From NCBI GenBank assembly GCA_038245785.1, contig JBBRSB010000022.1, positions 20,632 to 84,631 on the forward strand: a stretch of 64,000 nt of DNA, written 5' to 3'. Below the pieces are notes generated by a model. It did no database searches. It saw only the letters and a list, made by a program, of their open reading frames with translations, and was not told where the DNA came from. This document shows, piece after piece, positions 11,727 through 55,671 of the stretch. The stretch comes from Gloeobacterales cyanobacterium (lineage in GTDB: Bacteria > Cyanobacteriota > Cyanobacteriia > Gloeobacterales > PMM-0068). Numbering within the stretch: position 1 is the first letter of the stretch; each line of letters starts with the position of its first letter. The translations under genes and the position numbers were made by a program.

Positions 11727-12188
11727 ATGGAAACGGAACTCACCATTCAACAGGTCGCAAATTCTACAGGGTTAAGCGTACACACCCTGCGCTATTACGA
11801 ACGCAACGGTCTGATCGCACCGATTGATCGGGCTGCCAATGGTCATCGTCGATATTCGGACCAGAACATTGCCTGGATTGAATTTTTGACGAAGTTACGC
11901 ACCACGGGTATGCCGATTCGTCAGATGCAGCAATTTGCGGCCTTGGTGCGTGAACGTCCTGATGAGGTACAGGAACGCCGCATCTTACTGGAAGTTCATC
12001 GTTCCGCCGTGCAAAAACACATGGATCAACTTAGTCATCATCTGGCAGTTATTGACTGGAAGATTCAGCACTATCAAGAGCTGGAGAAAGCCAGAGGCAG
12101 TGACCAGGACTGTATCTATCCCGTACAGGAACAGCCCACTACGTCATCAATTTCTGAAAAACGCGCTAGGACTGGGTCCATTTCCTAG
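11727..12188 (+). CDS. MerR-family regulator (AdhR/NmlR-like)
   Basis: LTIQQVANSTGLSVHTLRYYERNGLI...NGHRRY...LRTTGMPI. Confidence 0.9.
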   Translation: METELTIQQVANSTGLSVHTLRYYERNGLIAPIDRAANGHRRYSDQNIAWIEFLTKLRTTGMPIRQMQQFAALVRERPDEVQERRILLEVHRSAVQKHMDQLSHHLAVIDWKIQHYQELEKARGSDQDCIYPVQEQPTTSSISEKRARTGSIS

Positions 12189-12276
12189 CCATCGTAGCAA
12201 CTGACTGGCTAAAGAAGGGCAGGAATCATAGCTGCTCACAGAATCACTTTGCTCAAAATATCGAGGCTCTACTCTT

Positions 12277-13161
12277 ATGAACACACAAAATGTCGTCTTA
12301 ATCACGGGCAGCAGTAGTGGCTTTGGCTATCTTGCAGCCCAAACGCTTGCCCGCAAAGGATATAGCGTTTATGCCACCATGCGCGATATAGAGGGGCGTA
12401 ACGCTGCTCCCACCGAACAACTACGCGCTGTAGCGAGGGAAGAAAATCTATCTTTGGAGGTAGTCGAACTGGATGTGACCAAGGATGCCTCTGTCGCCCT
12501 TGCCGTAGGCTCCGTCATCGAGCGTGCAGGGAAAATTGATGTCTTGGTTAACAACGCTGGGGTGATGTATTCCGGAGTCACAGAAGCCTATACTCTCGAG
12601 CAGGCGTACCAACAGTTTGAGCCAAACTTCTTTGGAGTGATACGCATGAATCGGGCTGTACTCCCGCATATGCGTCAGCAAAAAAGTGGTTTGCTGATTC
12701 ATCTAGGGTCTCTGGCTAGCGGGTTAATGTTTCCCTTCTATGGTCTCTACTGTGCAAGTAAGCACGCTGTGGAAGCTCTTGCATTGTCCTATCGCTATGA
12801 CTTATCCAGTCTTGGCATTGATTCTGTCGTCGTCGAACCTGGTCCCTTTGCCACAAATCTACTTGGGACTAACGACCCACCCCGCGACCAAGAGTGTCTT
12901 GCCGCCTATGGACCTGTGGCAGACATTCCGAGCAAGGTCACCCAAAACATCGAAGCAGGACTCCAAGACCCTCAGGTGGCGGTTGACAGTATCGTCAACC
13001 TGATTGAAAGTCCCACGGGAGAACGCCCCTTCAGAACCGTTCCTGGCTTTGACTTTGGCTTGAGGCCAGTCAACGCCGCCAAAGAAATAGCGCAGCAGGG
13101 TCTCCTGGAAGCCCTCGCTTTGCAAGAGCTGGAACCGTTAAAGACAACTGCACTCCATTAA
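12277..13161 (+). CDS. short-chain dehydrogenase/reductase
   Basis: TGSSSGFG, NNAG, YCASK. Confidence 0.92.
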   Translation: MNTQNVVLITGSSSGFGYLAAQTLARKGYSVYATMRDIEGRNAAPTEQLRAVAREENLSLEVVELDVTKDASVALAVGSVIERAGKIDVLVNNAGVMYSGVTEAYTLEQAYQQFEPNFFGVIRMNRAVLPHMRQQKSGLLIHLGSLASGLMFPFYGLYCASKHAVEALALSYRYDLSSLGIDSVVVEPGPFATNLLGTNDPPRDQECLAAYGPVADIPSKVTQNIEAGLQDPQVAVDSIVNLIESPTGERPFRTVPGFDFGLRPVNAAKEIAQQGLLEALALQELEPLKTTALH

Positions 13162-13185
13162 CTCCATCTACACGAGGAATGTCCT

Positions 13186-14172
13186 ATGAAAACGCGACAA
13201 TTAGGCAAAAATGGCCCTCAAGTCTCAGCGATCGGACTCGGCTGTATGGGCATGTCAGAATTCTATGGCAGCCGCAATGACCAAGATTCTATAGCCACCC
13301 TCCAGCGAGCCTTTGAACTGGGAATTACCTTCCTGGATACGGCTGATATGTATGGCCCACACCATAACGAAGAGCTAGTCGGTAAAGCAATTCAGGGCCA
13401 TCGTGAGCAGATCGTTTTAGCTACCAAGTTTGGCATTGTTCGTGGGGAAGACCCGACGGTTCGCAGCGTGAACGGTAAACCTGAATATGTTCGCCAGGCT
13501 TGTGATGCCAGTCTCAAACGTTTAGGCGTAGACGTAATAGACCTCTATTACCAGCATCGGGTAGACCCCCAAGTTCCGATTGAAGAGACCGTGGGCGCGA
13601 TGGCTGAACTGGTGAAAGAAGGAAAGGTTCGTTACCTGGGACTTTCTGAAGCGTCTCCCCAGACGCTGCGCCGCGCCTACGCCGTTCATCCGATTACAGC
13701 GCTACAAACGGAATATTCTTTATGGAGCCGCGATCCAGAAGATGAAATCCTGGCAACCTGCCGAGAATTGGGCATCGGCTTTGTCCCCTATAGTCCTTTA
13801 GGCCGGGGCTTCCTCACCGGACAGATCAAGCGCTTTGAAGACCTGGCCGAAGACGATTACCGTCGCTTTTCTCCTCGCTTTCAGGGCGAAAACTTCCAGC
13901 GCAATCTTGAGTTGGTCAAACAAATCGAGACAATGGCTACTGAAAAAGGCTGCCGTCCTTCTCAACTGGCCTTGGCCTGGGTCCTAGCTCAAGGAGAGGA
14001 CATTGTGCCCATCCCCGGAACCAAGCGCATTCCCTACCTGGAAGAAAATATCGGAGCTCTAGAGGTCAAACTGACGACTGACGACTTAGCCCGTATCGAT
14101 GCCATTGCCCCCAAAGGTTCCGCCGCCGGTACACGCTATCCCGAAAGCATGATGAGCGCGGTGAATGGTTGA
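13186..14172 (+). CDS. aldo/keto reductase
   Basis: [39 protein letters not shown]. Confidence 0.93.
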
Positions 14173-14187
14173 GATTTCTGTTAGTAA

Positions 14188-14287
14188 CACCTCCTAATCC
14201 CCCAATTCTGGGGGACTTTGAGTATAGGCTTATAGCTAAGTGCAAGAGAAGATGGCTTCCTGCCCAAAAAATCGGGGGATGGGAAGC
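14188..14287. repeat. second copy of the CCCCCAATTCTGGGGG dispersed repeat
   Basis: taatcccccaattctgggggactttgagt is near-identical to 2607-2636; degenerate right arm cccaaaaaatcggggg. Confidence 0.7.
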
Positions 14288-14468
14288 CATTTTAAATAGG
14301 TTCTTTACTCTTGGAAAGGGTAGAAAAATTCAATTGTGTATGGTGGACGAAGTTCAACTAAGTAAGCAAACTATGAAAAAGAGAGTACTACTCAAGTCAG
14401 AAATCTCTCTTGCGAGTTATTTCTGCTAAACCCACGTTGTGTCTAACCTAATCTACTCACTTCGAATT

Positions 14469-17400
14469 TTAAGTCAGGATAGGTTGTGAATCTTTCCATA
14501 TAGTAATCAATGTTTTAATTTCAGATCGTTGAATTGGCAACGCAGCAAACCTTTGCTGAATTTTTGAATCAAGCTGCTCACTAACTTTTATCATAGATCT
14601 ACCAGTCGAGAGAGCTTTAAGTAGCTCAAATATGAGACAATCTCGATCAACAGGAATAAGTACTTGGCCATAAAGTTTGTAGATAAACTGAGTAGAAATA
14701 TCTAAAGCATATTCCAGATTAGTACGGACATCTTTAATGATCTTAAGGATGGATATATAGTTAAATCCAATTTTAAAATTAGATTTTCGAACACTTTCAA
14801 AGAGCGTAGTATCATCAATAATAGTGTAATAAAATCCCAAATATACTAACTGGCAGACAGCATCATTATACTGAGATTGAGAAAGTGTATTCCGCTTCAG
14901 ACTGTGATGTAAAACTACCTGTGTCCAGACCCCTCTCACATTAGAATCTGATTGAGCATAATGTCGCAATAATTGGTCATCAGAATAAAGAACATGATTA
15001 GACTCACTAGCAATCAACATAGTATCAACGAAAGATTGACCAAAAATTCCATTACGCTTTTCTCGCTCACCACTATTTATGCTAAGTGCACGTCTGCAAG
15101 ATAAAATTTGACAATTTTTTCGAACCCAAGCAAGAACTTTTTCAATATAGCTCAAGCTTTTAAATACTTGTTCAGCAGTTGTGTCCTGTATAGCCAGAGA
15201 ACCATTTTCTAAGCTAATCGTTGAGAATCCATTTGATTGAAGTTCACGCCGCTCATTAGCGACATCTTCTAGAAGAAGAATAGTTGAACGAGCTATTCCA
15301 AATTTTCCAAGCATCTGTACAACTTCGTCAGCAATACCTAATTGATGTACTGTCAAAAGTGATGTTAAATCAATAACAACAAGCTCTCCTCGTGCAAGTG
15401 TAGTGAGACCTTCCTCAAATTCTTTTCCAGGCCCTTGCCAACAACATAACTTTGAGTCAGGACGTCGAATCAGTTCAAAAAACAGGTCAACAGGATTACG
15501 CTGGAGTAATTCAGCAAACATTCCAAAAGGTATTGTACCCTGTTGATAATACGCCGAAATCTGTTCAAATTTATTCATTCTCAGTTCAAGCACTGTCTGC
15601 ATATTTTTTATCCATTCAGGGTCGATATTATCGTTCTCTGAATCCAATATATTGAAAGTCCTAAATCCCTCCACTTCTGGACTATTTTCGATTATTTGAA
15701 TGCTCTTCATATATGCAGCATAGTATTTGCTTTTAATGTCTAAAACAATGACACTACTTTTACCAAAAATATCTTCTTTTATAATGATTTCATCACCAAC
15801 TTTCTTAGCTATCATTTTTTTTGCTAAGGAATCTTCTACAGACAATTCTTGATGCCCAATTGCATGAGATAATTTGTCTTCAATAATTTGCCAAGTTTTA
15901 ACTTCATGTTGATCTTTTAATAGAACTCCAGTATTGGGTATCACTCTCTCTGGATCTATATCAAGCAATTTAAAATTATTTTCTTCTTTGAGATAGAAAG
16001 TAGCATATATTTTATGAGCCTCCCAATTATCGTAAAAACGCTTTTGCAACTCATATAGAGTTTCCAATAAGTCTTGAAATCTATTTCGATTTCTATAAAG
16101 ATATATAAGAACTTTACATAAATCAAAAGACAGTCCGTTAAGACGAGGGTGCAAGTCAAGAAATTGGTCTAGCTCATCTAGATTATCCATTAAAAAATTA
16201 ATACGGGCTAAATGAATTTGCATTGAAATATCATTAGGAAATAATCGCAAATAATCTTTGCATACCGAATAAGCAGTATTAAGTTCATCTATGTCTATAT
16301 ATAGATTGACAGCCAAATCAGATATCTGATCAAGAGGGCCATATTTTTTAAGAAGACCTTCACATATGGGCAGAGCTTTTCCAAGGTCACCAGAACCCAG
16401 GTATGAGTTAAGTAGACTGCGTATAAAGCGAGTGTTCAAAGTTATATCAACAAATTTCTCATAAATCTCAGCTGCATCCTTGTAGTGTTTTAGTTCATTT
16501 AGCAAATCAGCTAGCATAATTTGGTCACGGAGACATGCATTCTCACCCAAAGAAGCTTTTGCTTGGGCTATATACGACTCAACTCCACTAGCATCTTGCG
16601 CTTTTAACGCAGCACGAACTGCAATTATCAACGTAACGGTATCACATGTGTATTCAGCAAGTAGACTCTTTATTAAAACTTTAGTCTGTTCATAATCATC
16701 TTCTTGTAAACTCAATTGCATGAGCAAATGATTAGCTTCTTTTCTGTATGAATCGTTATCTGTTTGAAATTGCTCAAGTACTTTTTTGGCATCTTTAAAT
16801 CGTCCTTCATCCATCATCCATGCAGCAGTCAGAATCGACGCCTCAGGTGTGGAAGGGTTAGTGATAATTTCCTCTAGATAAGTAATGGCTTGAGATTTTT
16901 CATTCCTGGTATAAGCAAGTAGAGCACGTTGCTTAATTAGTTGGGGATTATGAGGTTTTATTCTTAGAGCAATATCTGTATCGCGAATGGCTTCATCTAT
17001 CCTGTTTAGCCATCTCAAAGCGCTGCCTCTATTAGCAAGTGGTACTAACAAGCCCGAATGTAAGTTCTGCGGATAATCCCCACCTATAATTTCGGTTAGT
17101 ATCTCTATTGCCCGCTCCAGCGCAAGTTGCTGATCAGCTGTGATTTGTCCTGCCAAGAGTAATGAGAAGTTCTTAAGTATGGGTTCCATTATTGCCACGG
17201 CCAGCAAGACCTTAATATTGCTTAGATCTCCAGCTTCACCATTTTTGATGGCTGTTTGAAACCATTTCTTAGCAAGCTCATAAGACTTGCGATTGAGAGC
17301 AGCCTCTCCTATAGCTGCTGCCACTTCTGCATTAGACCTATATTGGGCTGGAGCCAGATTGATTATTGTTTCAAGTACTTCATCCCGAGGGGCCATTTGA

Positions 17401-18647
17401 ATCCTTATAGCATAAGCTGTGCAATTAGCTGGATTCTTCTGCAATACTGTCTGAACAAGTTCCTCAGCCTTTATATGCTCTCCCTGAAACATGTAACCTA
17501 TGGCTGCATGGACTATAGCTCTTTCATCATCTGGCTTATACTGCAAGGCTTCGAGGAAAGATACTGCTGCATTCGCAGTTTGATCGAGTGAAAGATAGGC
17601 CATTCCGATGTTACTCAACAAGCGAAACTTATGTACGGGATCAGCTTTTGTCCATAGCTCCTTCTTAAGATCACTTAAGTAATCCAGTGCTTCCTTAGGC
17701 TTACCTCGATTAATGAACGTTCCTCCATTTGTAATTCGGGCGTTCCTTTCATCATTCAAGTCTGATTTGTTCTCGGTTAGAGTGACTAGCATGGCGTGCA
17801 TATGGGGAATAAGTTTCGCCTGTTCTTCAATATTCTCTTGAAATCCAATACTTAATTGAACTGGATCTGGATTAGGAAGCTTCCCATAGCGTATTAGTGA
17901 GATTACAAATGCAGCAGCAGCATTCGCCGCATAAGAATGCCATCTATCATCCTTTTTTATATCAGCTAGATCTGAAATACCTCTTACTTCTAGAAAACTT
18001 GGCGGAGGATTGTGATTAGAAGCTGCACTAGCCACGCCATATCCTTCCATTGCCACAGCAAGCAATTTCGGGCACTGGTTAACTAAATTATCTATGTTAG
18101 TCTGATTGGCAATAACTTTCTCTCCACTTGCAATGGGGCCATAATGCAACTTTGGGAGCTGAGTCTTTTTTTTACCCTTTCCTGGACGGGTTGTAACAAT
18201 GCTGTTAGACCAGTTGGAAAGTTCTGGGTTCTTTGAACGACCATAAAGCAAGCGATCCGAAGGTAATTGTTTTACTCTGTTTTCAGACCCCTTATCTGTG
18301 ATCTTTGCTAATTCGTAGTAGTGAACAAACTCAGCCACTACTACATCACCTAGATCTACTTTTCCTTTAACACCACCTGCGATCCCTACCATGAAGACGT
18401 ACTTTGGTTGGTAACGTTTAATCATCTGTTGAGTACTAAGTGAGGCTTCATTGTTACCCATGCCAAGAAGCATTACTAGAACTACACGATAACGGCGGTC
18501 GCTGTCTGCAATAGAAATATAGCCACAAAAATAAGTAGTAGGGTCGCTGTCATCGTGTTCGGTTGTGTATTCTTCAAGTCTTGCAAGGATTGCATCTCGT
18601 TCAACTGGCAGGGCTGTTACAATTCCGATGTCTGATTTCACCTCCAC
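14469..18647 (-). CDS. nucleoside phosphorylase (PNP/MTAN) + TPR + GreA/B-C-like + PIN multidomain protein, putative anti-phage/conflict protein
   Basis: N-term GIVTALPVE, GMGN, VGIAGG, GPIASGEKVI, AMEG, RGISD; long TPR array; ELSVEDSLAKKMIAKKVGDEIII (GreA/B C-terminal-like); VVIDLTS...LYSDDQLLR (PIN acidic motifs); visibly AT-rich. Confidence 0.75.
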   Translation of the reverse strand: MEVKSDIGIVTALPVERDAILARLEEYTTEHDDSDPTTYFCGYISIADSDRRYRVVLVMLLGMGNNEASLSTQQMIKRYQPKYVFMVGIAGGVKGKVDLGDVVVAEFVHYYELAKITDKGSENRVKQLPSDRLLYGRSKNPELSNWSNSIVTTRPGKGKKKTQLPKLHYGPIASGEKVIANQTNIDNLVNQCPKLLAVAMEGYGVASAASNHNPPPSFLEVRGISDLADIKKDDRWHSYAANAAAAFVISLIRYGKLPNPDPVQLSIGFQENIEEQAKLIPHMHAMLVTLTENKSDLNDERNARITNGGTFINRGKPKEALDYLSDLKKELWTKADPVHKFRLLSNIGMAYLSLDQTANAAVSFLEALQYKPDDERAIVHAAIGYMFQGEHIKAEELVQTVLQKNPANCTAYAIRIQMAPRDEVLETIINLAPAQYRSNAEVAAAIGEAALNRKSYELAKKWFQTAIKNGEAGDLSNIKVLLAVAIMEPILKNFSLLLAGQITADQQLALERAIEILTEIIGGDYPQNLHSGLLVPLANRGSALRWLNRIDEAIRDTDIALRIKPHNPQLIKQRALLAYTRNEKSQAITYLEEIITNPSTPEASILTAAWMMDEGRFKDAKKVLEQFQTDNDSYRKEANHLLMQLSLQEDDYEQTKVLIKSLLAEYTCDTVTLIIAVRAALKAQDASGVESYIAQAKASLGENACLRDQIMLADLLNELKHYKDAAEIYEKFVDITLNTRFIRSLLNSYLGSGDLGKALPICEGLLKKYGPLDQISDLAVNLYIDIDELNTAYSVCKDYLRLFPNDISMQIHLARINFLMDNLDELDQFLDLHPRLNGLSFDLCKVLIYLYRNRNRFQDLLETLYELQKRFYDNWEAHKIYATFYLKEENNFKLLDIDPERVIPNTGVLLKDQHEVKTWQIIEDKLSHAIGHQELSVEDSLAKKMIAKKVGDEIIIKEDIFGKSSVIVLDIKSKYYAAYMKSIQIIENSPEVEGFRTFNILDSENDNIDPEWIKNMQTVLELRMNKFEQISAYYQQGTIPFGMFAELLQRNPVDLFFELIRRPDSKLCCWQGPGKEFEEGLTTLARGELVVIDLTSLLTVHQLGIADEVVQMLGKFGIARSTILLLEDVANERRELQSNGFSTISLENGSLAIQDTTAEQVFKSLSYIEKVLAWVRKNCQILSCRRALSINSGEREKRNGIFGQSFVDTMLIASESNHVLYSDDQLLRHYAQSDSNVRGVWTQVVLHHSLKRNTLSQSQYNDAVCQLVYLGFYYTIIDDTTLFESVRKSNFKIGFNYISILKIIKDVRTNLEYALDISTQFIYKLYGQVLIPVDRDCLIFELLKALSTGRSMIKVSEQLDSKIQQRFAALPIQRSEIKTLITIWKDSQPILT

Positions 18648-18865
18648 ACAGCCTCTTGCCAGATACTGATCAAGTTATACCCTTAATCTCAGTGATTTAT
18701 TACTGCCATAAGACTTGAATCAAAAGGACTGGATAGAAAACCAGACAGTACCTGCTTAATCAAACAAACGCGAATAGCCAAAAGTCGATAATAAACTTAT
18801 TAAAGAAGACTCTTTCTCAATTCCATAGCCAGATAGAATACAAGTCTAGCCAGAAAGAAAATCAA

Positions 18866-20176
18866 CTACAAAGCCTGAAAACGCACCTTCAATCCATCTT
18901 TTGGCCGACGGGTCGGGATAATAACAGGCTCCAAACTCTGTCCAGGTAAGAGATCCCAGCGATAACTCCGCAGCAGATGGGACACAATAATCTTCATTTC
19001 CATCTTGGCAAAAGCGATTCCGACGCAAACTCGGGGACCACCGCCAAAACCAATCAGGCTAAAGGGCTGACGCTTAGGCTGCTGGTCTACACTCCAACGG
19101 TCGGGATCGAAGCGTTCCGGCTCAGGATAAACCGTGGATAGACGATGGGTTATCAAAATAGAGTACTGGGCCAACCAACCAGCGGGAATGTGAAAGCCGT
19201 TAAATTCAAAGGGTTTAATTACACCCCGAAATCCACCAGCCACCGGAGGATGGAGCCGCTCTACTTCACACATAATTTGGTCTAGGTAGGGCATCTGTCC
19301 CATCTGTTCTAAACTCAACGGTCCTTTTACGGTCAGCGACCCCTGCTCTGCTCGTGCTCGTTCCAAAACTTCAGGATGACGGCCCATCTCCAAACAAATC
19401 CAGGTCAGCATCGCCGTAGTTGTCTCGTGACCCGCAAAAAGCATCAGCATCGCCTGCGCTTTCAGTTCTTTCAGGCTCAGACGATTGCCTTCTTCATCCT
19501 GTGCCTGAATCAAAAGGCTCAGTGCATCTTGGGTGGGCCTTTTCTGGCGCTCCTCAATCACGGCTTCCAGATGTTCAAAAATCTGGTTACGGGCTTCCAC
19601 CCCTCGTCCTAAAGAAGTCCAGGGAAAAGGAACCGGACTCAGGGAGAATAAGCCATCGGTCAAGGTAGTGAATAGCTTGCTCAAGCGTTCGACTTCAGGC
19701 CCGGAACTGGTCCCTAACAGAAGCTGACTGGCAATGTCAAAGGTCAACTGTTTGTACTGATCGAACCAAACGAACTCCCTTTGCTGCTCCCATTTTTTGA
19801 AATATTGGAAGGCAATCGTTTCCATAGTTGAGAAATAACTAGCCAAAGCCGGACCATGCAAAGCAGGCATGATTAGGCGGCGATTGCGACGATGTTCTTC
19901 CCCTTCCTGGAGAAAAAGGGATTCGCCGAGCAACGTTTTAAAAGTATCGGGCCAGCCATCACGCCAGGAAAAGTGGTCCATATGGCTGGAGAGAACAAAT
20001 TCCACTGCTTCCAGGCCAACCATAAATACCGTGGGTCTACCGATAATGTTGGACTTGAAAACGGGTCCATAGGCTTCATAGCGCTTAGAAATGAATTCAG
20101 GATTAAACAAGAACTCCAGGGACTCTCCAACAAGCGGAAGCCCCGTAGTCCCAGGAGGCAGTTTTAGATTTGGCAT
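18866..20176 (-). CDS. cytochrome P450 (CYP120-like)
   Basis: AGHETT, EVER, PERFDP, FGGGPRVCVG heme motif. Confidence 0.93.
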   Translation of the reverse strand: MPNLKLPPGTTGLPLVGESLEFLFNPEFISKRYEAYGPVFKSNIIGRPTVFMVGLEAVEFVLSSHMDHFSWRDGWPDTFKTLLGESLFLQEGEEHRRNRRLIMPALHGPALASYFSTMETIAFQYFKKWEQQREFVWFDQYKQLTFDIASQLLLGTSSGPEVERLSKLFTTLTDGLFSLSPVPFPWTSLGRGVEARNQIFEHLEAVIEERQKRPTQDALSLLIQAQDEEGNRLSLKELKAQAMLMLFAGHETTTAMLTWICLEMGRHPEVLERARAEQGSLTVKGPLSLEQMGQMPYLDQIMCEVERLHPPVAGGFRGVIKPFEFNGFHIPAGWLAQYSILITHRLSTVYPEPERFDPDRWSVDQQPKRQPFSLIGFGGGPRVCVGIAFAKMEMKIIVSHLLRSYRWDLLPGQSLEPVIIPTRRPKDGLKVRFQAL

Positions 20177-20281
20177 TGAAGTTTTTCATGAGTCTCCAAC
20201 TTCCATGTAACACCCTAGAGCATGTAGGCTTAGCATTTTTCATAGGTTAGTCTGGGGAACGAACCTCAAAGAGAACGTCGG

Positions 20282-21247
20282 ATGAAAACACGGACCCTCG
20301 GCACCTCTGGAATTCAGATCTCCCCGATCCTGATGGGCACCTGGCAAGCAGGCAAACGCATGTGGGTTGGGATTGAAGATGCAGACACGATCAAAGCGAT
20401 CCGGGCGGCGGTAGAGGCAGGAATTACGACAATTGATACCGCTGAAGTCTATGGGGAAGGGCACTCAGAGCGTATTGTCGGGGAAGCCCTCCAGGATGTA
20501 CGGGACCGTGTTGTTTATGCCACCAAAGTTTTTGCCAATCATCTGCAACATGACCAGGTAATCGCAGCCTGTGAGCAGTCGTTAAAAAACCTGCGCACAG
20601 ATTACATTGACCTCTATCAGATACACTGGCCTGCCGGTGCTTTTGGTAACGCCCTCGTGCCAATTGAAGAAACGATGTCAGCCCTAAGTGAACTCAAGAA
20701 ACAAGGCAAGATTCGAGCAATCGGGGTATCCAATTTTTCACAAGAACAGCTAAAAGAAGCGGCTCAGTATGGACGAATTGATAGCGTGCAACCGCCCTAC
20801 TCCCTCTTTTGGCGCAAGATTGAAAAAGATCTCATGCCGTACTGTGTCGAGCACCAAATTTCTATCTTGGCCTACTCTTCCCTGGCCCAAGGGCTGCTCA
20901 CGGGCAAGTTTAGTCCAGAGCACCAGTTTGACTCAGCCGATAACCGGGCGAAGAATCAACTCTTTCAAGGAGAAACCTATCAGCGGGCTCAGCAAGCTTT
21001 AGCTCGATTACGCCCTCTGGCTGAATATCATCAGACTACCCTCGGCAATCTTGCTTTGGCCTGGTTGCTCGCCCAGCCTCAAGCGAATGCGATCGTGGGC
21101 GCACGCAAGGCCGAACAGGCTATCCAGAATGCAAAAGCGGCTGACCTTCTATTATCGTCTGAGGAATTAGCTGAAATCGATAGGATTGGACGCACGGTCA
21201 CGGACCATTTGGATGACAATCCGATTATGTGGATCTGGAGTGCGTAG
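20282..21247 (+). CDS. aldo/keto reductase
   Basis: DTAEVYG, YATKV, IDLYQIHWP, IGVSNF. Confidence 0.92.
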   Translation: MKTRTLGTSGIQISPILMGTWQAGKRMWVGIEDADTIKAIRAAVEAGITTIDTAEVYGEGHSERIVGEALQDVRDRVVYATKVFANHLQHDQVIAACEQSLKNLRTDYIDLYQIHWPAGAFGNALVPIEETMSALSELKKQGKIRAIGVSNFSQEQLKEAAQYGRIDSVQPPYSLFWRKIEKDLMPYCVEHQISILAYSSLAQGLLTGKFSPEHQFDSADNRAKNQLFQGETYQRAQQALARLRPLAEYHQTTLGNLALAWLLAQPQANAIVGARKAEQAIQNAKAADLLLSSEELAEIDRIGRTVTDHLDDNPIMWIWSA

Positions 21248-46282: not shown

Positions 46283-46956
46283 TTTCTATAAGAAGTCGAA
46301 TCAGAAAGAAGTTAAATCAGACTAGTCCAGCCTCCACTCACCTCTGTGTCTGGAGTTCGTGAATACGACAAGATATGTTCTCTTTGCTACCAAATTAGTT
46401 GCACATATAAGAGTCAATACATTAACGGACAGCAAGTATTGATCGCAAACCGATGCAAACCAAAATAGGAACAGCAATGCGATAGTATGAGGGCAAGTTA
46501 TGTGAGTAGGCTTTGAAGGTTTGTAATCTCAGCCTCTCCTCCGCAACCTCTTGCATGAGGCCGTAGCGCAGAGAATGGTCTATCTCTGGAACACGCATCA
46601 CACTCTACGATGTGATGCGTGACACGACAGAATACTAGAGAGAACACAAAGCGTAAGGGTTTTCACTGTAGACATATAGTTGCAGGAACACAAGTATATA
46701 TTTATTCGTCTTAGAATTAGAAAGCTCACATACGGTTAATGCTTCCTGTGTATATAACAGTTGCAGATGATACACAATCTGCTCGAAAGAGCAGATCCCA
46801 GGCGCACCCATTTGTTTATAGCCAGATTCTCTGTAAAATATGGGTCAGGGATTCCATAGGCAGCCTGTCCAAAGCAAACTTAATTGGGACATATCCGCTC
46901 GATTAAGGGGTGAGCCCATCCTGACTGTTAACTACCTACTTTTCAAGAGTGCCTTG

Positions 46957-49140
46957 ATGGAAACAAACTACACCGAATCTTCTGAATCTATAAACTTTCA
47001 AAAATATTGGTCAGTGGTTAGAAGACGCTGGTTGACGGCCACAGGTGTGTTCACCCTTGTTTTTGGTTCGGTTGCTACTTTTACCTTTTTGCAGCAACCC
47101 TCCTACGAGGCCATTGGCAAGGTTCTGTTGAAACGGAAGGATTCAATCTCTTCTCTGACCGGGCTTGGGGGAGAAAACCGGGGAGAGCTGCAATCATTGG
47201 CCCTGGAGAAAGATCCTATCGATACCGAAGCAGAAGTGGTAGCCTCTGCGCCCTTAGCTCAACAGACGATTAAGGCTTTTGACCTCAGAGATAAGGACAA
47301 TGAGCCATTAACAGTCGACGATTTCTTGAGGAAGTTGACGGTGAAGAGCATTCGAGGGGCTGACGTTCTGAAGGTTTCTTACATTGACAAGAACCCCGCC
47401 CGTTCGGCAGCGGTCGTCAACTTTTTGATGAAGTCTTACATGCAGAACAACCTTTACAGCAACCGAGCTGAAGCTGTTGCTGCTCGAAAATTTATCGAGG
47501 CTCAGCTCCCAAAAATTGAAAACACCGTCCGTCGATCTGACGCCGCGCTGCGTAAGTTCAAGGAAGCCAACAAGGTAGTGGCCCTAAAGGAAGAAGCGCA
47601 GTCAGCGATTACTGTTATTGCTGACCTGGAGAATCAAGGAGCGAGAGCGCAGGCTGAATTAGATGATGCTGCTGCTCGCTCTAGTGCCCTGCGCAGCAGG
47701 CTAGGCATGAGTTCGCAAGATGCTATGATTTTAGGCTCTATTAGCCAATCTCCCGCAGTCCAGAGAGCCTTAGAAGAGCTACAAAAGGTTCAAGGAGATA
47801 TTGCTATCCAGTCTGCTCGCTATTCTGAAAATCACCCTACGGTGGTCAACCTAAGAAGCAAAGAGGCAGCCTTGAAGTCTCTTCTGAAAGGTCGTGTCAA
47901 AGGTGTCCTCGGGAAGGGGAAACAAGACATTGGCGATAACCTGCAAGTGGGTGAGCTTAGGATAAAAATGACAGAAGACTTAGTTAAGTCAGAAGTTGAT
48001 CGCCTAGGTTTAGCAAGTCGAGTAGCAGCGCTGGAAGGTAGACAAGCTTCATACAAGAACAGAGTGAGCGATATCCCAAGGCTGGAGCAGGGCGAACGGG
48101 AACTAACACGGGGTTTGGAAGTATCTCAAAATACTTATGAACTCATGCTCAAGAAACTCCAGGAAATCCAGGTGACGGAAAATCAGAACATTGGCAATGC
48201 TCGTGTTCTTGAGACAGCGATCATTCCTGAAATACCTGTCAGTCCAAAAATTCCTTTGAACCTAGCAGCAGGAGCTTTTCTGGGAGGTATCCTTGCCCTA
48301 GGGACCATCTCCATTTTAGAAGCACGCGATAAATCAATTAAAACAGTCAAAGAAGCTAGACAGTTACTCGGATATACCCTTCTGGGTGCTATTCCCGCTT
48401 CTGAGTACAAAGCACTCCCAGCAGACACTTCAGGGGCTTCCCTGCCTTTGGGAAGTAGGACCCCTGCCGCAATTGCCTCCCCCCAATCGCCAGCAGGCGG
48501 AGCCTACCGTATGCTCCAAGCCAATTTGAGATTCATGCGTTCTGAAAAGGATCTGAAAACAGTCGTCATTAGCAGCTCTGTACCGAGAGAAGGTAAATCA
48601 ACGGTAGCAGCCAACTTAGCGGCAGCCCTTGCGCAGGTGGGTCGTAGAGCGCTCCTGATCGATGCCGACTTGCACCGTCCTCGCCAGCATGAAATATGGA
48701 ACCTCTCCAACCGGATTGGTCTGAGCGAAGTGATTATGGGACAGGCAACAACAGAGGTGGCCGTACAGCAAGTAATGCCTTATCTTGATGTCCTAACGTC
48801 TGGGACGCAACCCCCCAGTCCGCTAGCATTACTAGATAGTGAGGCTATGTCCTTCTTCCTCGAACAAGTTTCTGAAATCTATGACCTGATCATCCTAGAT
48901 ACTCCTCCGCTTGTATTTGAAGCTGATGCAACCATTCTTGGCAAAATGTGCGATGGACTGCTTTTGGTGGTGCGTCCTGGCGTGGTTGACTCTGTGAGCG
49001 GTGCAATGGCCAAAGAGTTTCTAGAGCAATCAGGACAAAACGTCTTGGGGCAAGTGGTTAATGGCGTCATTGTAGAGAATGAGCCCTCCGCTTACTATCG
49101 ACAAGCAGGAAGTTATTACACGGGCGGCGTTAGATCTTAG
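46957..49140 (+). CDS. Wzc/GumC polysaccharide co-polymerase tyrosine autokinase
   Basis: Two TM helices with periplasmic coiled coils, SSVPREGKS, IDADL, ILDTPP, C-terminal Tyr residues; start set to ATG 46957. Confidence 0.9.
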   Translation: METNYTESSESINFQKYWSVVRRRWLTATGVFTLVFGSVATFTFLQQPSYEAIGKVLLKRKDSISSLTGLGGENRGELQSLALEKDPIDTEAEVVASAPLAQQTIKAFDLRDKDNEPLTVDDFLRKLTVKSIRGADVLKVSYIDKNPARSAAVVNFLMKSYMQNNLYSNRAEAVAARKFIEAQLPKIENTVRRSDAALRKFKEANKVVALKEEAQSAITVIADLENQGARAQAELDDAAARSSALRSRLGMSSQDAMILGSISQSPAVQRALEELQKVQGDIAIQSARYSENHPTVVNLRSKEAALKSLLKGRVKGVLGKGKQDIGDNLQVGELRIKMTEDLVKSEVDRLGLASRVAALEGRQASYKNRVSDIPRLEQGERELTRGLEVSQNTYELMLKKLQEIQVTENQNIGNARVLETAIIPEIPVSPKIPLNLAAGAFLGGILALGTISILEARDKSIKTVKEARQLLGYTLLGAIPASEYKALPADTSGASLPLGSRTPAAIASPQSPAGGAYRMLQANLRFMRSEKDLKTVVISSSVPREGKSTVAANLAAALAQVGRRALLIDADLHRPRQHEIWNLSNRIGLSEVIMGQATTEVAVQQVMPYLDVLTSGTQPPSPLALLDSEAMSFFLEQVSEIYDLIILDTPPLVFEADATILGKMCDGLLLVVRPGVVDSVSGAMAKEFLEQSGQNVLGQVVNGVIVENEPSAYYRQAGSYYTGGVRS

Positions 49141-49317
49141 GGGTGTTTCCTATGCATCCGATTAGACTACGCTTAATGGGCACCATGGGGTATTTTTATT
49201 GCGTGTACGCTGAATTTGGTGCTGGGATCTCCACAATCTGTTGCGATAGACAGATTTGCTTACCCAGACAACCCATAAAGAGCCAACTAAATAGTCTGCA
49301 ATAGGTATTTAGCCGCA

Positions 49318-50256
49318 ATGAACATCAATATTTTAATGGCAACTTATAACGGAGAGAAATATCTAGCAGAGCAGTTAGAAAGCTTGCAAGCACAAACCTA
49401 TCAAGATTGGACCTTGCACGTTAGAGATGATGGCTCTCAAGACAATACTTTAGATATACTCCATCGCCATGCTACGCAGGATAGTCGTATCTCCATTTTA
49501 GATAACAATGGAGAGCATCTTGGCTCTTGTGGTAGTTTTTCTTTCTTGATGGAGCAAAGTCTAGACGCTGAATACGTTATGTTCTGTGACCAGGATGATG
49601 TATGGATGCCTAACAAAATCCAGCTAACCCTTGAAGCTATGCTCGATTTAGAAGCAAAATACGGCAATATACCTCTTATGATCTACACCGATCTACAGGT
49701 CGTAGATGATCAGTTGAATACCATTGCTAATTCTTTTCTAGCCTATCAATCGATTGATCCCAAAAGGAATAATCTCCATGATATTTTAGTTACCAATCCT
49801 GTAGCAGGTTGCACTGCTCTGCTCAACAGAGTCCTAGTAAAATTAGCTGCTCCTATACCTACTGAGGCCCTTGGCCATGATTGCTGGTGCTCCCTGGTAG
49901 CCAGTGCTTTTGGCAAACTGGAACATTTAAGCAAACCGCTTATATACTATCGGCAGCATGGCAGAAATGATGTCGGGGCTTATAGTTTCAACTTTCGCTA
50001 TATTGTCAAGAGAACACTGTCAATTATCGACCTAAGTGGCAATGAACTTAGAGCTACTATGATTCGCTCGATCATACAAGCAAAAAGTTTTTTGTCTCGC
50101 TATTCTGGCAAGTTAGATGTTGATTCGCTCCATATCATTCAAATGTATACCTCTCTCTTAGAAGATACATTCTGGGAGAGAAGAATAAAGATCATTAAGT
50201 ATAAATTTTTCCGGCATGGCCTAGTGAGGAATCTTGGGCTGATGTTGAGAGCTTAA
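49318..50256 (+). CDS. GT2 glycosyltransferase (rhamnosyltransferase-like)
   Basis: ILMATYNGEKY, RDDGS, FCDQDDVW, HD.W, YRQH. Confidence 0.9.
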   Translation: MNINILMATYNGEKYLAEQLESLQAQTYQDWTLHVRDDGSQDNTLDILHRHATQDSRISILDNNGEHLGSCGSFSFLMEQSLDAEYVMFCDQDDVWMPNKIQLTLEAMLDLEAKYGNIPLMIYTDLQVVDDQLNTIANSFLAYQSIDPKRNNLHDILVTNPVAGCTALLNRVLVKLAAPIPTEALGHDCWCSLVASAFGKLEHLSKPLIYYRQHGRNDVGAYSFNFRYIVKRTLSIIDLSGNELRATMIRSIIQAKSFLSRYSGKLDVDSLHIIQMYTSLLEDTFWERRIKIIKYKFFRHGLVRNLGLMLRA

Positions 50257-50373
50257 GTCTTTGCAGCACCATGAAAAAGTCGTGTTGTGCAAATCATATT
50301 TACTGACCACGGATAATGCTTATTTGTCAAAAATACCTGTCCTGTAGTGTATCTCTGAAGAGTTAGATCGCTG

Positions 50374-51615
50374 ATGAATAAACTTCGCAATCCTTCGAGC
50401 CTTATACGAAGTTTCTGGGCTTTATCTGATCAAGGGATCGTTAGCTTAGGAAACTTTTTCACCACTATTCTCCTCGCTCGGGCGTTACCCCAAGCAGAAT
50501 ATGCCATATACGCCCTTACCCTTGGGATTTTGCTCAGTGCCAACAGTTTGCATGCTGCACTGATCACTTATCCACTCTCGGTGAAAGGAGCGGCAATCGA
50601 TAAAGAGGTTCTCAAGCGCTTTACAGGAGGGTCTTTAGTACTCACTACCGGGCTGGTCCTCGCGCTCAACCTTGCCCTATTTGCAGCCCTATCAGTCCTA
50701 GGCAGGCCGCAGCTGGCTCCTTGGGTATTTGGGGTTTCTCTCTTCTGGCAGCTTCAAGAAACTCTCCGGCGGGCGTTAATATCTCAGTTGCGCCACAACG
50801 AAGTCGTATGGGGAGACGGGATCAGCTATCTGGGTCAAGCCGTGATGGTCTGGCTGTTGACTCAAGGGAAATGGTTATCTTTAGATACAGTTTTTGTGGC
50901 CATGATGCTTACTTCTGCCGCTGCTGCTGCGGTACAAGCGATACAACTAGGTATCAAATCCATGAATTTTGCAGAACTAAGGGTTCTGATTAAAGATTTT
51001 TGGAGTTTCGGGCGCTGGATATTACTAACTAATTTGTTGGGTTCCTTGTCGATACAAGTCTTTCCCTGGTCTTTAAAGTTTTTTCATGGACTCCAAGCTA
51101 CAGCTTCCTTTCAGGTGGTCGCTAACGTTTTAGGGGTTTCCCATCCCGTTCTATTCAGTTTAGGAAGTCTGATCATGCCTGCTGTCGTGCAAGCCCATCT
51201 CAAGGGGAATATGCAGGATGTTTGGAAAGCAACCTGGAAGTATGCGTTTCTAGGGGGAGCTCTGGTACTACCCTACTATGCTGTGCTGTTTTGCTGGCCA
51301 AGAGAGATGCTTACCGCCTTTTATGGCTCAAACTCTCCCTACCTAAACCTGGGTCTAGAAACACCATTGCGTATCTATGTTCTGTCTTATGCCCTCATGT
51401 ATTTTTCATTAGTATTACAGGCTTTGCTCTATGGCCTTGAGGACAGCCGAGCTGTTTCATCGGTCCAAGTCATAAGTACTGTTACTAGTATCATTTTGGG
51501 CATTCCTTTAGTTCTGTACAATGGGGTTTTAGGAGCTGCTTTAGGAACTGTTTGCATTAGTATAAGCAGTCTTATCAGTTTTAGTTTATTGATACGAAGA
51601 AAGAGTTTGGCTTAA
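50374..51615 (+). CDS. Wzx-like polysaccharide flippase
   Basis: WALSDQGIVSLGNF...LARAL; multi-TM; EPS cluster context. Confidence 0.75.
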   Translation: MNKLRNPSSLIRSFWALSDQGIVSLGNFFTTILLARALPQAEYAIYALTLGILLSANSLHAALITYPLSVKGAAIDKEVLKRFTGGSLVLTTGLVLALNLALFAALSVLGRPQLAPWVFGVSLFWQLQETLRRALISQLRHNEVVWGDGISYLGQAVMVWLLTQGKWLSLDTVFVAMMLTSAAAAAVQAIQLGIKSMNFAELRVLIKDFWSFGRWILLTNLLGSLSIQVFPWSLKFFHGLQATASFQVVANVLGVSHPVLFSLGSLIMPAVVQAHLKGNMQDVWKATWKYAFLGGALVLPYYAVLFCWPREMLTAFYGSNSPYLNLGLETPLRIYVLSYALMYFSLVLQALLYGLEDSRAVSSVQVISTVTSIILGIPLVLYNGVLGAALGTVCISISSLISFSLLIRRKSLA

Positions 51616-51701
51616 ATCCTACAAAGTATTAATGAAATTACGAATAGCAGGAACAAGATAAATTTTCTTTGTGTCAAAAGGTTAGAAAGGTAAAACTCTG
51701 A

Positions 51702-52841
51702 ATGCGCATAGCTCTTTTTGACTATAGAGTTATTCCAACCAATCCGACAGGGGGGTGCAATCTCCGCATTGCAAAGGGACTTTCTGACAGCCATGAACTT
51801 ACTGTTTTCGCTGTAGAATTTGAGAATCCTGCTCCTGGCCGAATTCGTTGGGTGCGCATTCCCGCTCCCATTCGCCCGTTAGCCTTACTTTTTGTTGTCT
51901 ATTACGTCTTGGCTCCTTTGTACTATTGGATGCACTGTCTCCGTAACCAGGCGCATTTTGATGCCGTACTTATGGTTGAGAGCAAGATCGCTTTTGGTGA
52001 TATTTCCTATGCACACTTCTGCCATCGGGCTTATCTAAAAAATCATTGGCAGCAGTCAAAACTTGGAGGGGCACGCGGTTGGCTCCGATGGTTGGATTAC
52101 AATCTCCACGCATTCTTTGAGCCTTGGACTTATCGTAGGGTCAAATCAATCATTGTCCCTTCCCAGGGACTGGCACGAGAACTACAAGAGGAATATCCCT
52201 ATACCAGAGGCAAAATACACGTTTTGCCCAATCCTGTTGATATCGATCGTATGCGTCCGCCCGAAAAGGCTCGAGAATATTTTCGCCAAGAATTTGGCAT
52301 TCACGAAGAAGATTTATTTTTGGTATTTACCGCTTTGGGACAATTTGAGCGTAAGGGGCTCCCCTTGCTGCTTGAAGCTTTAACTCAATTGAAAAATCCC
52401 CGCTTAAAGCTTTTTGTGGTAGGAGGAGAAGCTGACCTAGTATCCCTATACAAAGAACGTATCCAGCAAATGGGACTAGAAAAACAAGTAACTCTTGTGG
52501 GTATGCAAAAAGATGTGAGGCCCTACCTCTGGGCTGCGGATTGCTTTGTATTGCCTTCATACTATGAAGTGTTTCCCTTGGTGGTGCTAGAAGCAGCAGC
52601 GGCTGGACTACTTGTAGTTTCAACACCCCTCAATGGAGTTGAAGAGTTCTTAAAGGATGGCGAGAATGGCATCCTTGTGGAGCGCACCGCTACCGATGTC
52701 GCTCGGGGAATCAGCAGTATTCTTGCGATGACACCACCCATACGCCAAAGTATTCAAAATCAACTGCAGCACGATATAAAAAATTATTCCACAGAGAACT
52801 TTGTAGCTACTTGGTCAAAATTCTTTGAAGGTGGCACCTAA
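51702..52841 (+). CDS. GT4 glycosyltransferase
   Basis: PNPVD, RKG, VLPSYYEVFPLVVLEA. Confidence 0.88.
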   Translation: MRIALFDYRVIPTNPTGGCNLRIAKGLSDSHELTVFAVEFENPAPGRIRWVRIPAPIRPLALLFVVYYVLAPLYYWMHCLRNQAHFDAVLMVESKIAFGDISYAHFCHRAYLKNHWQQSKLGGARGWLRWLDYNLHAFFEPWTYRRVKSIIVPSQGLARELQEEYPYTRGKIHVLPNPVDIDRMRPPEKAREYFRQEFGIHEEDLFLVFTALGQFERKGLPLLLEALTQLKNPRLKLFVVGGEADLVSLYKERIQQMGLEKQVTLVGMQKDVRPYLWAADCFVLPSYYEVFPLVVLEAAAAGLLVVSTPLNGVEEFLKDGENGILVERTATDVARGISSILAMTPPIRQSIQNQLQHDIKNYSTENFVATWSKFFEGGT

Positions 52842-52844
52842 ACT

Positions 52845-54224
52845 ATGGAACAAGCATTTCTGGTTGCAAAAGTCCTATTTTGGATACTCGCGCTTGGAGT
52901 AGTTGTTCTACCCAAAAGATGGGCGTTGTTGAGCTATCTGGTGGTCATGCACATTGACCTCTCGGGACCCTTATTTGCCTCTTCTTCGTCCGTAGGTTTA
53001 GAAAATCTACTCAAAGTTATCGGACTACCCCTTATCTTATTAATTCGGACCCAATTCAAACCTTTAACAAATACCAAGATAACCTGGGCCTTTATTCTTT
53101 GGAGCATATTGATCTTATATGCTACTTTAACAACCTTTTGGAGTCCGTTTCTACTGTCTGGCATTAAGATGGTTTTCTATCTTTATGCCTATCTTTTTAT
53201 CTTCTTAATTTTTGTTCACGGTTGGTCAGAAGGTTGGATAGATGATTCACTTGTAGTTATGAGCTTATGGCTCGTTTTGGGTTTAGCCATACTGCAGACC
53301 TATATCCTGGGTAATCCTTTTGGTGCATTCAAAATTGTTAAAGAATTTCGATTTACTTCCTTTACCCATGCGCAAGGATTTGCAGGTTATCTAATCGCAG
53401 TTTTAGCCATTATTCTATTTTCTGGGCGCACAAGTTTTCTCAAGGCAGCCAGTATAGGAGCCATTTTGATCGGGATCATCCTGACAGGGAGTCGCTATGT
53501 TTTCTTTGGAATGGTCTTTCTGTTTTTCTTTGCTTGGCTCAGTCTCTTTTTCAAAAAGAATAGTTCACGACCACAGAATCGTTTACTGGACTTGACGAAG
53601 AAGTTTTTAGCGCCAGCCTGCGTAGTGACGGCTCTACTCGCTATAGCTAACTTTGCTCCCGACAATCGATTGAGCCAGCTTGCAGAATCGAACAATGGTG
53701 GCAGTGAAAAAGGAGTAGGTACCTTTATCTGGCGTCTTGGAATCTATGAAAGAGCTTTGACTACAATGCCTGACCGAGATATCTTCCCCTTGATCTTTGG
53801 TTCGGGAACAAGTAGTGGCGCCCAATTAGTCTTGGGTTATGATTCTCGCTATAGTGAGGAAGGAATAGATGCCAATCGAGTGGTTCATAGTGACTTCATC
53901 CGTACTTTCTATGAATGGGGATTACTCGGTGGTTTTATCTTTCTTAGCTTTCTGGGAGCTAGCTTAGTTAGTTATCTCAACTTGGCCATAGTGAAAAAAT
54001 CTACCACTGCGCTAGCTTTCATCGGACTTTTCCCAAATCTATTATTTGGTCTTGCTATAGAGAACATCCTTACGGCGTCCAGTTCACCAGATGGCATAGG
54101 GATAGTCTTAGTTATGGCCTATGGGGCTGCTACAAGAAAGAATGGTGAGGAGAATGCGATAATCTTTAAGAGCAAAAACAAGGCCCCTCGGCTCAGCAGT
54201 GAACTCCTTGGGAACGGAAGATGA
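52845..54224 (+). CDS. Wzy/O-antigen ligase-family membrane protein
   Basis: Multi-TM, LTGSR, WRLGIY, FGSG, VHSDFIRTFYEWG. Confidence 0.75.
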   Translation: MEQAFLVAKVLFWILALGVVVLPKRWALLSYLVVMHIDLSGPLFASSSSVGLENLLKVIGLPLILLIRTQFKPLTNTKITWAFILWSILILYATLTTFWSPFLLSGIKMVFYLYAYLFIFLIFVHGWSEGWIDDSLVVMSLWLVLGLAILQTYILGNPFGAFKIVKEFRFTSFTHAQGFAGYLIAVLAIILFSGRTSFLKAASIGAILIGIILTGSRYVFFGMVFLFFFAWLSLFFKKNSSRPQNRLLDLTKKFLAPACVVTALLAIANFAPDNRLSQLAESNNGGSEKGVGTFIWRLGIYERALTTMPDRDIFPLIFGSGTSSGAQLVLGYDSRYSEEGIDANRVVHSDFIRTFYEWGLLGGFIFLSFLGASLVSYLNLAIVKKSTTALAFIGLFPNLLFGLAIENILTASSSPDGIGIVLVMAYGAATRKNGEENAIIFKSKNKAPRLSSELLGNGR

Positions 54225-55594: not shown

Positions 55595-55671
55595 ATTATG
55601 CATATACTTTATGTCATCAAAAACTAGAGACCAAGCCATTTTTCCATTATCAATTCTTTGGAGATGACGCT

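Follow-up and report, generated by a model that had tools for sequence, protein, structure and literature searches.

One gene in a 64,000-nucleotide stretch of a Gloeobacterales cyanobacterium genome (contig JBBRSB010000022.1, positions 20,632 to 84,631; hereafter the window) encodes a 1392-aa protein of the TPR-GreA/B-C-PIN (TGP) family with a nucleosidase-fold PNP head. On balance, we think it likely that this protein defends its host against phage by abortive infection through ATP depletion, its TGP core sensing the infection, clustering and switching on the head. The gene carries the domains of the family, has intact PNP and PIN motifs and lies in a strain-variable insertion; its head groups with PNP-SAVED proteins, and heads are swapped across the family. 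The architecture itself is not new. It is already in print (Kaur, Iyer, Burroughs and Aravind, eLife 2021, PMC8195603), which caps the surprise. New here are the independent origin of a head of the type used in cyclic-oligonucleotide-based antiphage signaling systems (CBASS), and a pattern in relatives in which a degenerate head is accompanied by an intact PNP neighbor.

The open reading frame has a GTG start and no internal stops. One public contig, from sequencing run X1 (which may itself be the source), matches positions 13100-20400 of the window without a difference. A first-pass annotation, made from the letters alone, had described an AT-rich gene among housekeeping genes. Its GC content is indeed 38.1% against 47.9% for the genome, with only 32 of the 1724 long open reading frames lower, and its third-position GC is 29.0%, with only 15 lower; the neighbors are metabolic genes. 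The motifs quoted in that annotation are all present: TALPVE (residues 11-16), GIAGG (88-92), SGEKVI (174-179), RGISD (222-226), VVIDLTS (1090-1096) and YSDD (within YSDDQ, 1221-1225). AVAMEG lies at residues 197-202 and SVEDSL at 936-941. As to Pfam families, PNP_UDP_1 matches residues 6-250 (E 1e-19). Many TPR families, with TPR_1, TPR_2, TPR_8, TPR_14 and TPR_19 over cut-off, cover about residues 285-816, where TPR-like helices had been proposed. GreA_GreB C-term matches residues 900-957 weakly (E 0.043, under cut-off), and PIN-TPR-GreABC (PF20698) matches residues 1091-1232 with 103.5 bits (cut-off 27.8).

The head was modeled with a pLDDT of 90.4. Its best fold match is a 5′-methylthioadenosine/S-adenosylhomocysteine (MTA/SAH) nucleosidase (MTAN; Z 29.8, rmsd 2.2, 222 aligned residues), and all of the nearest solved folds are enzymes of this type. 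The N-terminal PNP/MTAN fold read at first pass was recovered by both Pfam and the model. Residues E16, M200, E201, R222 and D226 are intact and align with the MTAN motifs. We take E12, E174, R193 and D197 of MTAN to be its catalytic residues and the counterparts of E16, E201, R222 and D226; PDB titles naming Glu12Gln and Asp197Asn mutants appear among the MTAN structure matches. The head has the fold and catalytic motifs of the housekeeping enzyme MtnN, but it is only 20-24% identical to MtnN, misses the NCBIfam equivalog cut-offs for housekeeping MTAN (90.4 versus 169 and 52.4 versus 73.8 bits), is fused to a sensor core, and is rare and mobile. A separate 263-aa PNP-family gene is present in the host genome and is common to both same-genus genomes. 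In the PADLOC check suggested earlier, the effector model PDLC00759 matched the head at 111.5 bits.

To place the head, we compared it with TGP heads and with other PNP proteins. It is 86% identical to the head of P0003, the closest full-length homolog, and 74% identical to the PNP domain of P0053. In contrast, it is 25-33% identical to the full-length heads of other PNP-TGP proteins, whose TPR cores are 30-44% identical to that of the window. Searching with only the head gave 293 proteins among 4160 candidates. The best 120 of these include 110 PNP-SAVED proteins, the top ones 51-57% identical to the head. In a 46-row PNP tree, the heads of the window and P0003 and the PNP of P0053 form one branch (100/100) within the PNP-SAVED group (100/99), and the other cyanobacterial TGP heads form a separate branch (100/100). 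The bootstrap of this tree was not fully settled and it carried a long-branch warning; a 57-row tree with a mixture model agrees with it on the placement of the head. Both trees, built without a Cap17 row, put the head far from the housekeeping-type PNP of the host and nested among CBASS-linked PNP-SAVED proteins. A single origin of PNP-TGP proteins was rejected by the approximately unbiased test (p 8.6e-6 for 23 TGP heads held together; 51 rows after six long or near-duplicate rows were dropped, with P0047 and P0049 excluded from the group after the first tree had been inspected). In the core tree, the cyanobacterial group has the window and P0003 as its sister, and closely related cores differ in their heads. 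By these comparisons the head originates in the PNP-SAVED lineage and not in other PNP-TGP proteins, although the grouping gives no direction of transfer. Because the head is nearer to PNP-SAVED proteins than to other PNP-TGP heads, the PNP-TGP fusion arose independently here.

The relatives of the head also explain an apparent oddity. The first-pass annotation pointed to AME where EME is usual. AME is present (residues 199-201), but A occupies that position in 115 of 123 non-TGP relatives of the head, and P0003 has E. AME as a mark of a damaged or special site was thus rejected, as it is the norm in the PNP-SAVED lineage. In two of the three PNP-SAVED loci inspected, the genes after PNP-SAVED encode a cyclase, a HORMA or hypothetical protein and an AAA ATPase, the layout of type III CBASS (L116:8710-13239 and L120:4983-9422); the third has no annotated cyclase within 5 kb. 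We found no paper on ‘PNP-SAVED’ in the literature searched, which covered few subscription journals. When 301 genomes of the phylum were searched for Cap17-like proteins of full length, PNP-domain matches alone were obtained, in three genomes. P0053, mentioned above, is a 1328-aa PNP-NACHT-HEAT protein, in which the PNP module sits on an NLR-like sensor. In P0129, P0130 and P0150, the same PNP lineage is fused to a domain of the dCTP deaminase/dUTPase family, possibly a double nucleotide-depletion effector.

We modeled residues 890-1392 with AlphaFold2 from 46 sequences (pLDDT 87.9). The Gre-like domain in the model fits GreA 1grj in VIA-align (Z 10.4, rmsd 2.4, 73 aligned residues) and also GreB (Z 9.5) and Gfh1 (Z 9.4). 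In Foldseek against the PDB, the top seven rows for this region are Gre-type proteins at E about 0.01, with no match at E 0.001 or better. The PIN domain fits the archaeal PIN proteins SSO1118 (Z 10.1, rmsd 2.8, 118 aligned residues) and AF0591. Together with PF20698, these fits uphold the GreA/B-C and PIN folds proposed at first pass. Of 141 sequence matches, the best 60 include no solved TGP protein. Within the aligned cores, PIN aspartates D1093, D1208 and D1223 are kept in 49/49 and D1224 in 48/49, and W919, E934, K948 and K974 of the Gre-like domain are nearly invariant. The domain list given at first pass overlooked a helical bundle after the PIN domain (about residues 1276-1390), whose matches to MA3/HEAT-like and other helical repeats may reflect only a common arrangement in the model. 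The RNA polymerase genes of the host show the rpoC1/rpoC2 split of cyanobacteria, and the only Gre-C match in its genome is the TGP gene itself. Gre factors are absent from cyanobacteria (PMC7026648).

The TGP conflict system, with PNPase named among 13 heads, was described in PMC8195603. The gene in the window has the features of that family: a TPR region, a Gre-C domain after the TPRs, the family PIN with an acidic site, a listed variable head, and a stand-alone, sporadic occurrence. In the Figure 2 source data of the same paper, eight cyanobacterial rows combine PNPase, TPR, GreAB-C and PIN at lengths of 1385-1399 aa, as counted over the first 30 of 32 places. Core, order, size and stand-alone gene are the same; what differs is that the head of the window nests with PNP-SAVED and is distant from the other heads except that of P0003. 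The earlier statement that no characterized example was known thus stands for experiments, since we found no tested PNP-TGP in the literature searched, but not for the architecture, which Kaur et al. had already cataloged.

The only experimentally tested TGP protein that we found is Agp of the Bab/Agp system of E. coli ECOR25, which confers T5 resistance (bioRxiv 2024.11.07.622273). According to the parts of that preprint used here, GreA/B-C mutants of Agp, modeled on GreA residues that contact the polymerase, lose T5 resistance; no Bab-independent activity was detected with T5 or T145 phages; and the PIN mutant was unstable. Agp and the protein in the window share the TGP core, whose GreA/B-C domain is needed for defense in Agp. 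However, Agp passes its signal on to a separate membrane-targeting protein by way of an amyloid motif at its N-terminus, whereas the protein in the window has an enzyme fused in that slot: PNP begins at residue 6, no Bell-domain gene is adjacent, and the neighbors are P450 and aldo-keto reductase genes. TGP proteins are widespread, and their tested member needs a partner and an amyloid relay. The gene described here is self-contained, with a predicted output that is easily assayed (ATP loss and adenine release), and would therefore offer a clean test of polymerase watching and of the role of PIN. Its host, moreover, is a cyanobacterium without Gre factors.

PNP domains are known as immune effectors from Cap17 and DtcC, which cleave ATP and dATP; Cap17 was inactive on other adenine compounds, and the legend to the tree of the Cap17 clade mentions SAVED (bioRxiv 2023.01.24.525353, in the portions consulted). 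The word PIN is absent from the main text of that preprint. As in Cap17 and DtcC, PNP_UDP_1 would serve as the effector in the window, and the nearest relatives of its head are SAVED-fused and stand in CBASS operons. The likeness is at the level of the domain. The catalytic acid is intact as D226 in RGISD, the presumed counterpart of Cap17 D472. In contrast to Cap17 and Detocs, which are gated by a cyclic-nucleotide sensor or a phosphorelay, the head here would be gated by a TGP core. That the head arose independently shows effector traffic among CBASS, NACHT-HEAT and TGP systems.

We propose the following course of events. Infection would be sensed by the TGP core, and the sensing would need the GreA/B-C domain, as in Agp. 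The Gre-like domain probably docks on the rim of the RNA polymerase secondary channel, free of competition from host Gre factors. The core would then cluster, and the heads would dimerize and be switched on by proximity. Activation by proximity is suggested because the N-terminal slot of TGP proteins holds an amyloid seed (in Agp), EAD10 or bDLD3 adaptors, caspase, TIR, and intact or degenerate PNP, and because MTAN-fold enzymes act as dimers. The active head is predicted to cleave ATP into adenine and ribose-5′-triphosphate, and the loss of ATP would abort the infection; ATP or dATP is the presumed substrate by analogy with Cap17 and DtcC. PIN may be a part of the sensor and not a second killer, because Agp showed no activity in the absence of its linked effector and the Agp PIN mutant is unstable. 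The first-pass reading of a TGP conflict system with a PNP effector in defense is supported by the domains, the patchiness, the empty sites and the PNP relatives in CBASS operons. Its idea that one sensor gates two effectors stays a conjecture, and its interpretation as a whole is partly supported.

Several observations weigh against ATP depletion by a clustered, polymerase-watching protein. The genes around it are metabolic, with no defense island. ATP specificity of the head is presumed from lineage context, as the trees have no Cap17 or DtcC sequence. The Gre-like domain has weak sequence support, and a shared fold proves no function. Clustering is drawn from architecture only. Finally, the invariance of the PIN aspartates argues for catalytic work that our model leaves undefined. 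This last point favors the proposal in section 7 of PMC8195603, that GreA/B-C docks on a polymerase transcribing phage DNA and PIN cleaves the emerging transcript as a first, non-lethal line of defense, with PNP as back-up suicide. The aspartates D1093, D1208 and D1223 persist also in proteins with a degenerate head or another head in its place, and the table of Kaur et al. includes members for which no head is annotated. Agp, however, gave no protection without Bab against T5 or T145 phages; its destabilized PIN mutant says nothing on PIN catalysis. We therefore regard a PIN-led defense as rather unlikely, though it is the strongest of the alternatives.

Other readings keep the core but change its input or output. 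The head might deplete, or signal with, S-adenosylmethionine or MTA, NAD, AMP or a cyclic nucleotide instead of ATP. Its closest solved folds are MTA/SAH nucleosidases, its lineage has AME where MTAN has EME, and no paper on PNP-SAVED was found; but the tested bacterial immune PNPs, Cap17 and DtcC, cleave ATP and dATP, Cap17 was inactive on other adenine compounds, and SAVED appears in the tree legend of its clade, all of which makes another substrate improbable. The Gre-like domain might likewise be bait or a structural part, with the TPR solenoid binding a phage protein directly, like Avs-type sensors. Compared with the two closest homologs, the Gre-like region is 50-61% identical, versus 70-73% for the TPR and 66-67% for the PIN region, and this divergence occurs despite 70-98% conservation of the RpoC2 region across relatives. 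Archaeal members also exist (a Methanospirillum row and L038), and archaeal polymerases use other factors. Against this stand the Agp mutations modeled on GreA-polymerase contacts, which abolish defense, and the nearly invariant W919, E934, K948 and K974, so that we doubt strongly that the polymerase is not read. Least probable by far, in our judgment, is a gene outside defense, either a nucleoside-salvage enzyme or an inert relic acquired horizontally. Such a gene would suit the metabolic neighborhood, but the 1392-codon frame is intact, the active sites are conserved, the genome has a separate housekeeping PNP, the nearest relatives of the head are in CBASS operons, and a TGP family member, Agp, is proven to be anti-phage.

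We next describe the heads of the relatives. In the protein search, PF01048 and PF20698 occur together in 32 of 56 non-self matches (7996 best candidates scored). Counting that of the window, 36 TGP proteins have a PNP domain; E16, E201, R222 and D226 are all kept in 11 of them and not in 25. One degenerate motif type is common to 23 of the 25 altered heads (23 of all 36 PNP-TGP heads), and those included in the trees group on a single branch (99 in the 57-row and 100/100 in the 46-row tree). A co-oriented intact-PNP gene lies within 2 kb at 7 of 8 distinct degenerate-head loci (L016, L017, L019, L021, L046, L049 and L113); the eighth, L050, has no upstream DNA, and one locus fetched twice was counted once. 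In contrast, 1 of 19 control TGP loci (L051), each flanked on either side by 2.5 kb or more, has a PNP neighbor. None is present at L018, where the head is intact, or in the window. The numbers are small, the loci are related (the L019 and L049 heads are 91% identical) and many of the control loci come from outside the cyanobacteria; a mere tendency of PNP genes to gather in conflict islands may also account for the pattern. Co-evolution of a degenerate head with its own neighbor as a cognate pair was not seen (46-52% identity to its own versus 44-55% to those of other loci). By the motif test, the rows OUC14796.1 and WP_067776912.1 of Kaur et al. have degenerate heads, of which the passages of PMC8195603 used here make no mention. 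WP_067776912.1 belongs to Nostoc NIES-3756, and the neighbor of its gene encodes WP_082727426.1.

The pairing of degenerate head and intact neighbor suggests that the core clusters whatever occupies its N-terminus. A broader scheme, which we offer tentatively and hold as less probable than abortive infection by the protein in the window, is that TGP cores serve as platforms for clustering and have an N-terminal slot into which modules plug. A CBASS-type ATP nucleosidase would have been plugged in independently here, with surveillance of the transcription machinery replacing the cyclic-nucleotide control exerted through SAVED. In the larger cyanobacterial branch, a dead PNP would be a homotypic adaptor that recruits and activates the intact PNP within 2 kb. 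Such an adaptor would be a pseudo-enzyme in the role of TIR or death-domain adaptors, and the pattern makes it a testable prediction; we found no inactive-PNP adaptor in the literature searched. The intact PNP of the neighbors is fused to AAA, TIR/SEFIR, CHASE2, WD40 or TPR domains, or stands alone. Other heads in relatives are caspase, bDLD3, EAD10 and PNP plus TIR. The last is a 1612-aa TGP protein with two heads, an intact PNP and a TIR (L018:4659-9494). At L023, a caspase gene and a large gene with EAD10 come before an EAD10-headed TGP gene. The same layout of reading-frame lengths recurs in L024, L028 and L033, and the TGP frame appears broken in L033.

The distribution of the gene is patchy, not uniformly vertical, as the first-pass annotation had anticipated. 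The full gene was found in 0 of 30 related genomes, with partial PNP or TPR matches in 8. The PF20698 cut-off was passed in 4 of 401 genomes of the class, the host included, and 10 match at E 0.001. A scan of the genome collection with the single sequence gave 62 pattern matches, none confirmed, and one of viral contigs with the PNP head gave 31, none confirmed. Phage records held 2 partial PNP matches only, and plasmid records held the TGP core in 1.

To examine the insertion site, we compared eight public runs over the region (X1, X2, X3, X4, X5, X6, X8 and X10; X2, X4 and X8 come from one study). A contig of run X2 skips the gene, joining 14204 to 18866 (short side 69 letters, with 31 other letters between). 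Contigs of X4 and X8 join about 14170-14214 to 20232 (169 letters), skipping the P450 gene as well. Run X3 gave a weak joint of 14172 to 18866 (27 letters), and no contig of X5, X6 or X10 was seen to bridge the gene. The joints in X2, X4 and X8 indicate a site in three states: empty, with P450 only, and with P450 and the TGP gene. Being rare and missing from contigs of close relatives that join its flanks, the gene is a mobile insertion. In the same-genus genomes G001 and G002, the P450 and aldo-keto reductase genes of the flanks had no match at E 1e-50, so those genomes cannot reveal an empty site. The features are listed in Table 1.

Table 1. Features of the TGP gene and its insertion site, in window coordinates.
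Feature	Position	Strand	Basis
Whole gene, PNP-TPR-GreA/B-C-PIN-helical tail (TGP family)	14469..18647	-	Open reading frame, Pfam, GC 38.1%
PNP/MTAN-fold nucleosidase head, aa 1-258, PNP-SAVED lineage	17874..18647	-	Pfam, MTAN alignment, model, trees
Variable linker, aa 259-298, likely fusion joint	17754..17873	-	Only P0003 matches among 57 other proteins compared
TPR solenoid, about aa 299-890	15978..17753	-	Pfam TPR families; 28-73% identity across TGP homologs
GreA/B C-terminal-like domain, about aa 894-974	15726..15968	-	Weak Pfam, Foldseek, VIA-align Z 10.4 to GreA
TGP-type PIN domain, about aa 1085-1272	14832..15395	-	PF20698, conservation, fold
C-terminal helical bundle, about aa 1276-1390, MA3/HEAT-like arrangement	14478..14822	-	Model; Z 8-9 to assorted helical repeats
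Strain-variable insertion	14205..18865		Contigs of relatives join the aldo-keto reductase gene end to the P450 stop codon
Dispersed palindromic repeat, left edge of insertion	14196..14227	+	Similar copies at 2612, 2667 and 61728; about 20 further copies in genome

The neighboring genes encode MerR, a short-chain dehydrogenase/reductase (SDR), an aldo-keto reductase, P450 and a second aldo-keto reductase. The SDR gene (12135-13173) and the P450 gene (18866-20231) are likewise skipped in contigs of relatives, which makes the region a variable cassette site. A promoter and terminator scan gave no excess above shuffled sequence. Runs X3 and X5 include low-depth contigs with a PNP about 85% alike over window positions 17875-18690; in the pieces listed, the match stops at 17875, the end of the PNP domain. 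Elsewhere in the window, positions 46840-56835 hold a polysaccharide export and glycosyltransferase cluster of lower GC, which is ordinary.

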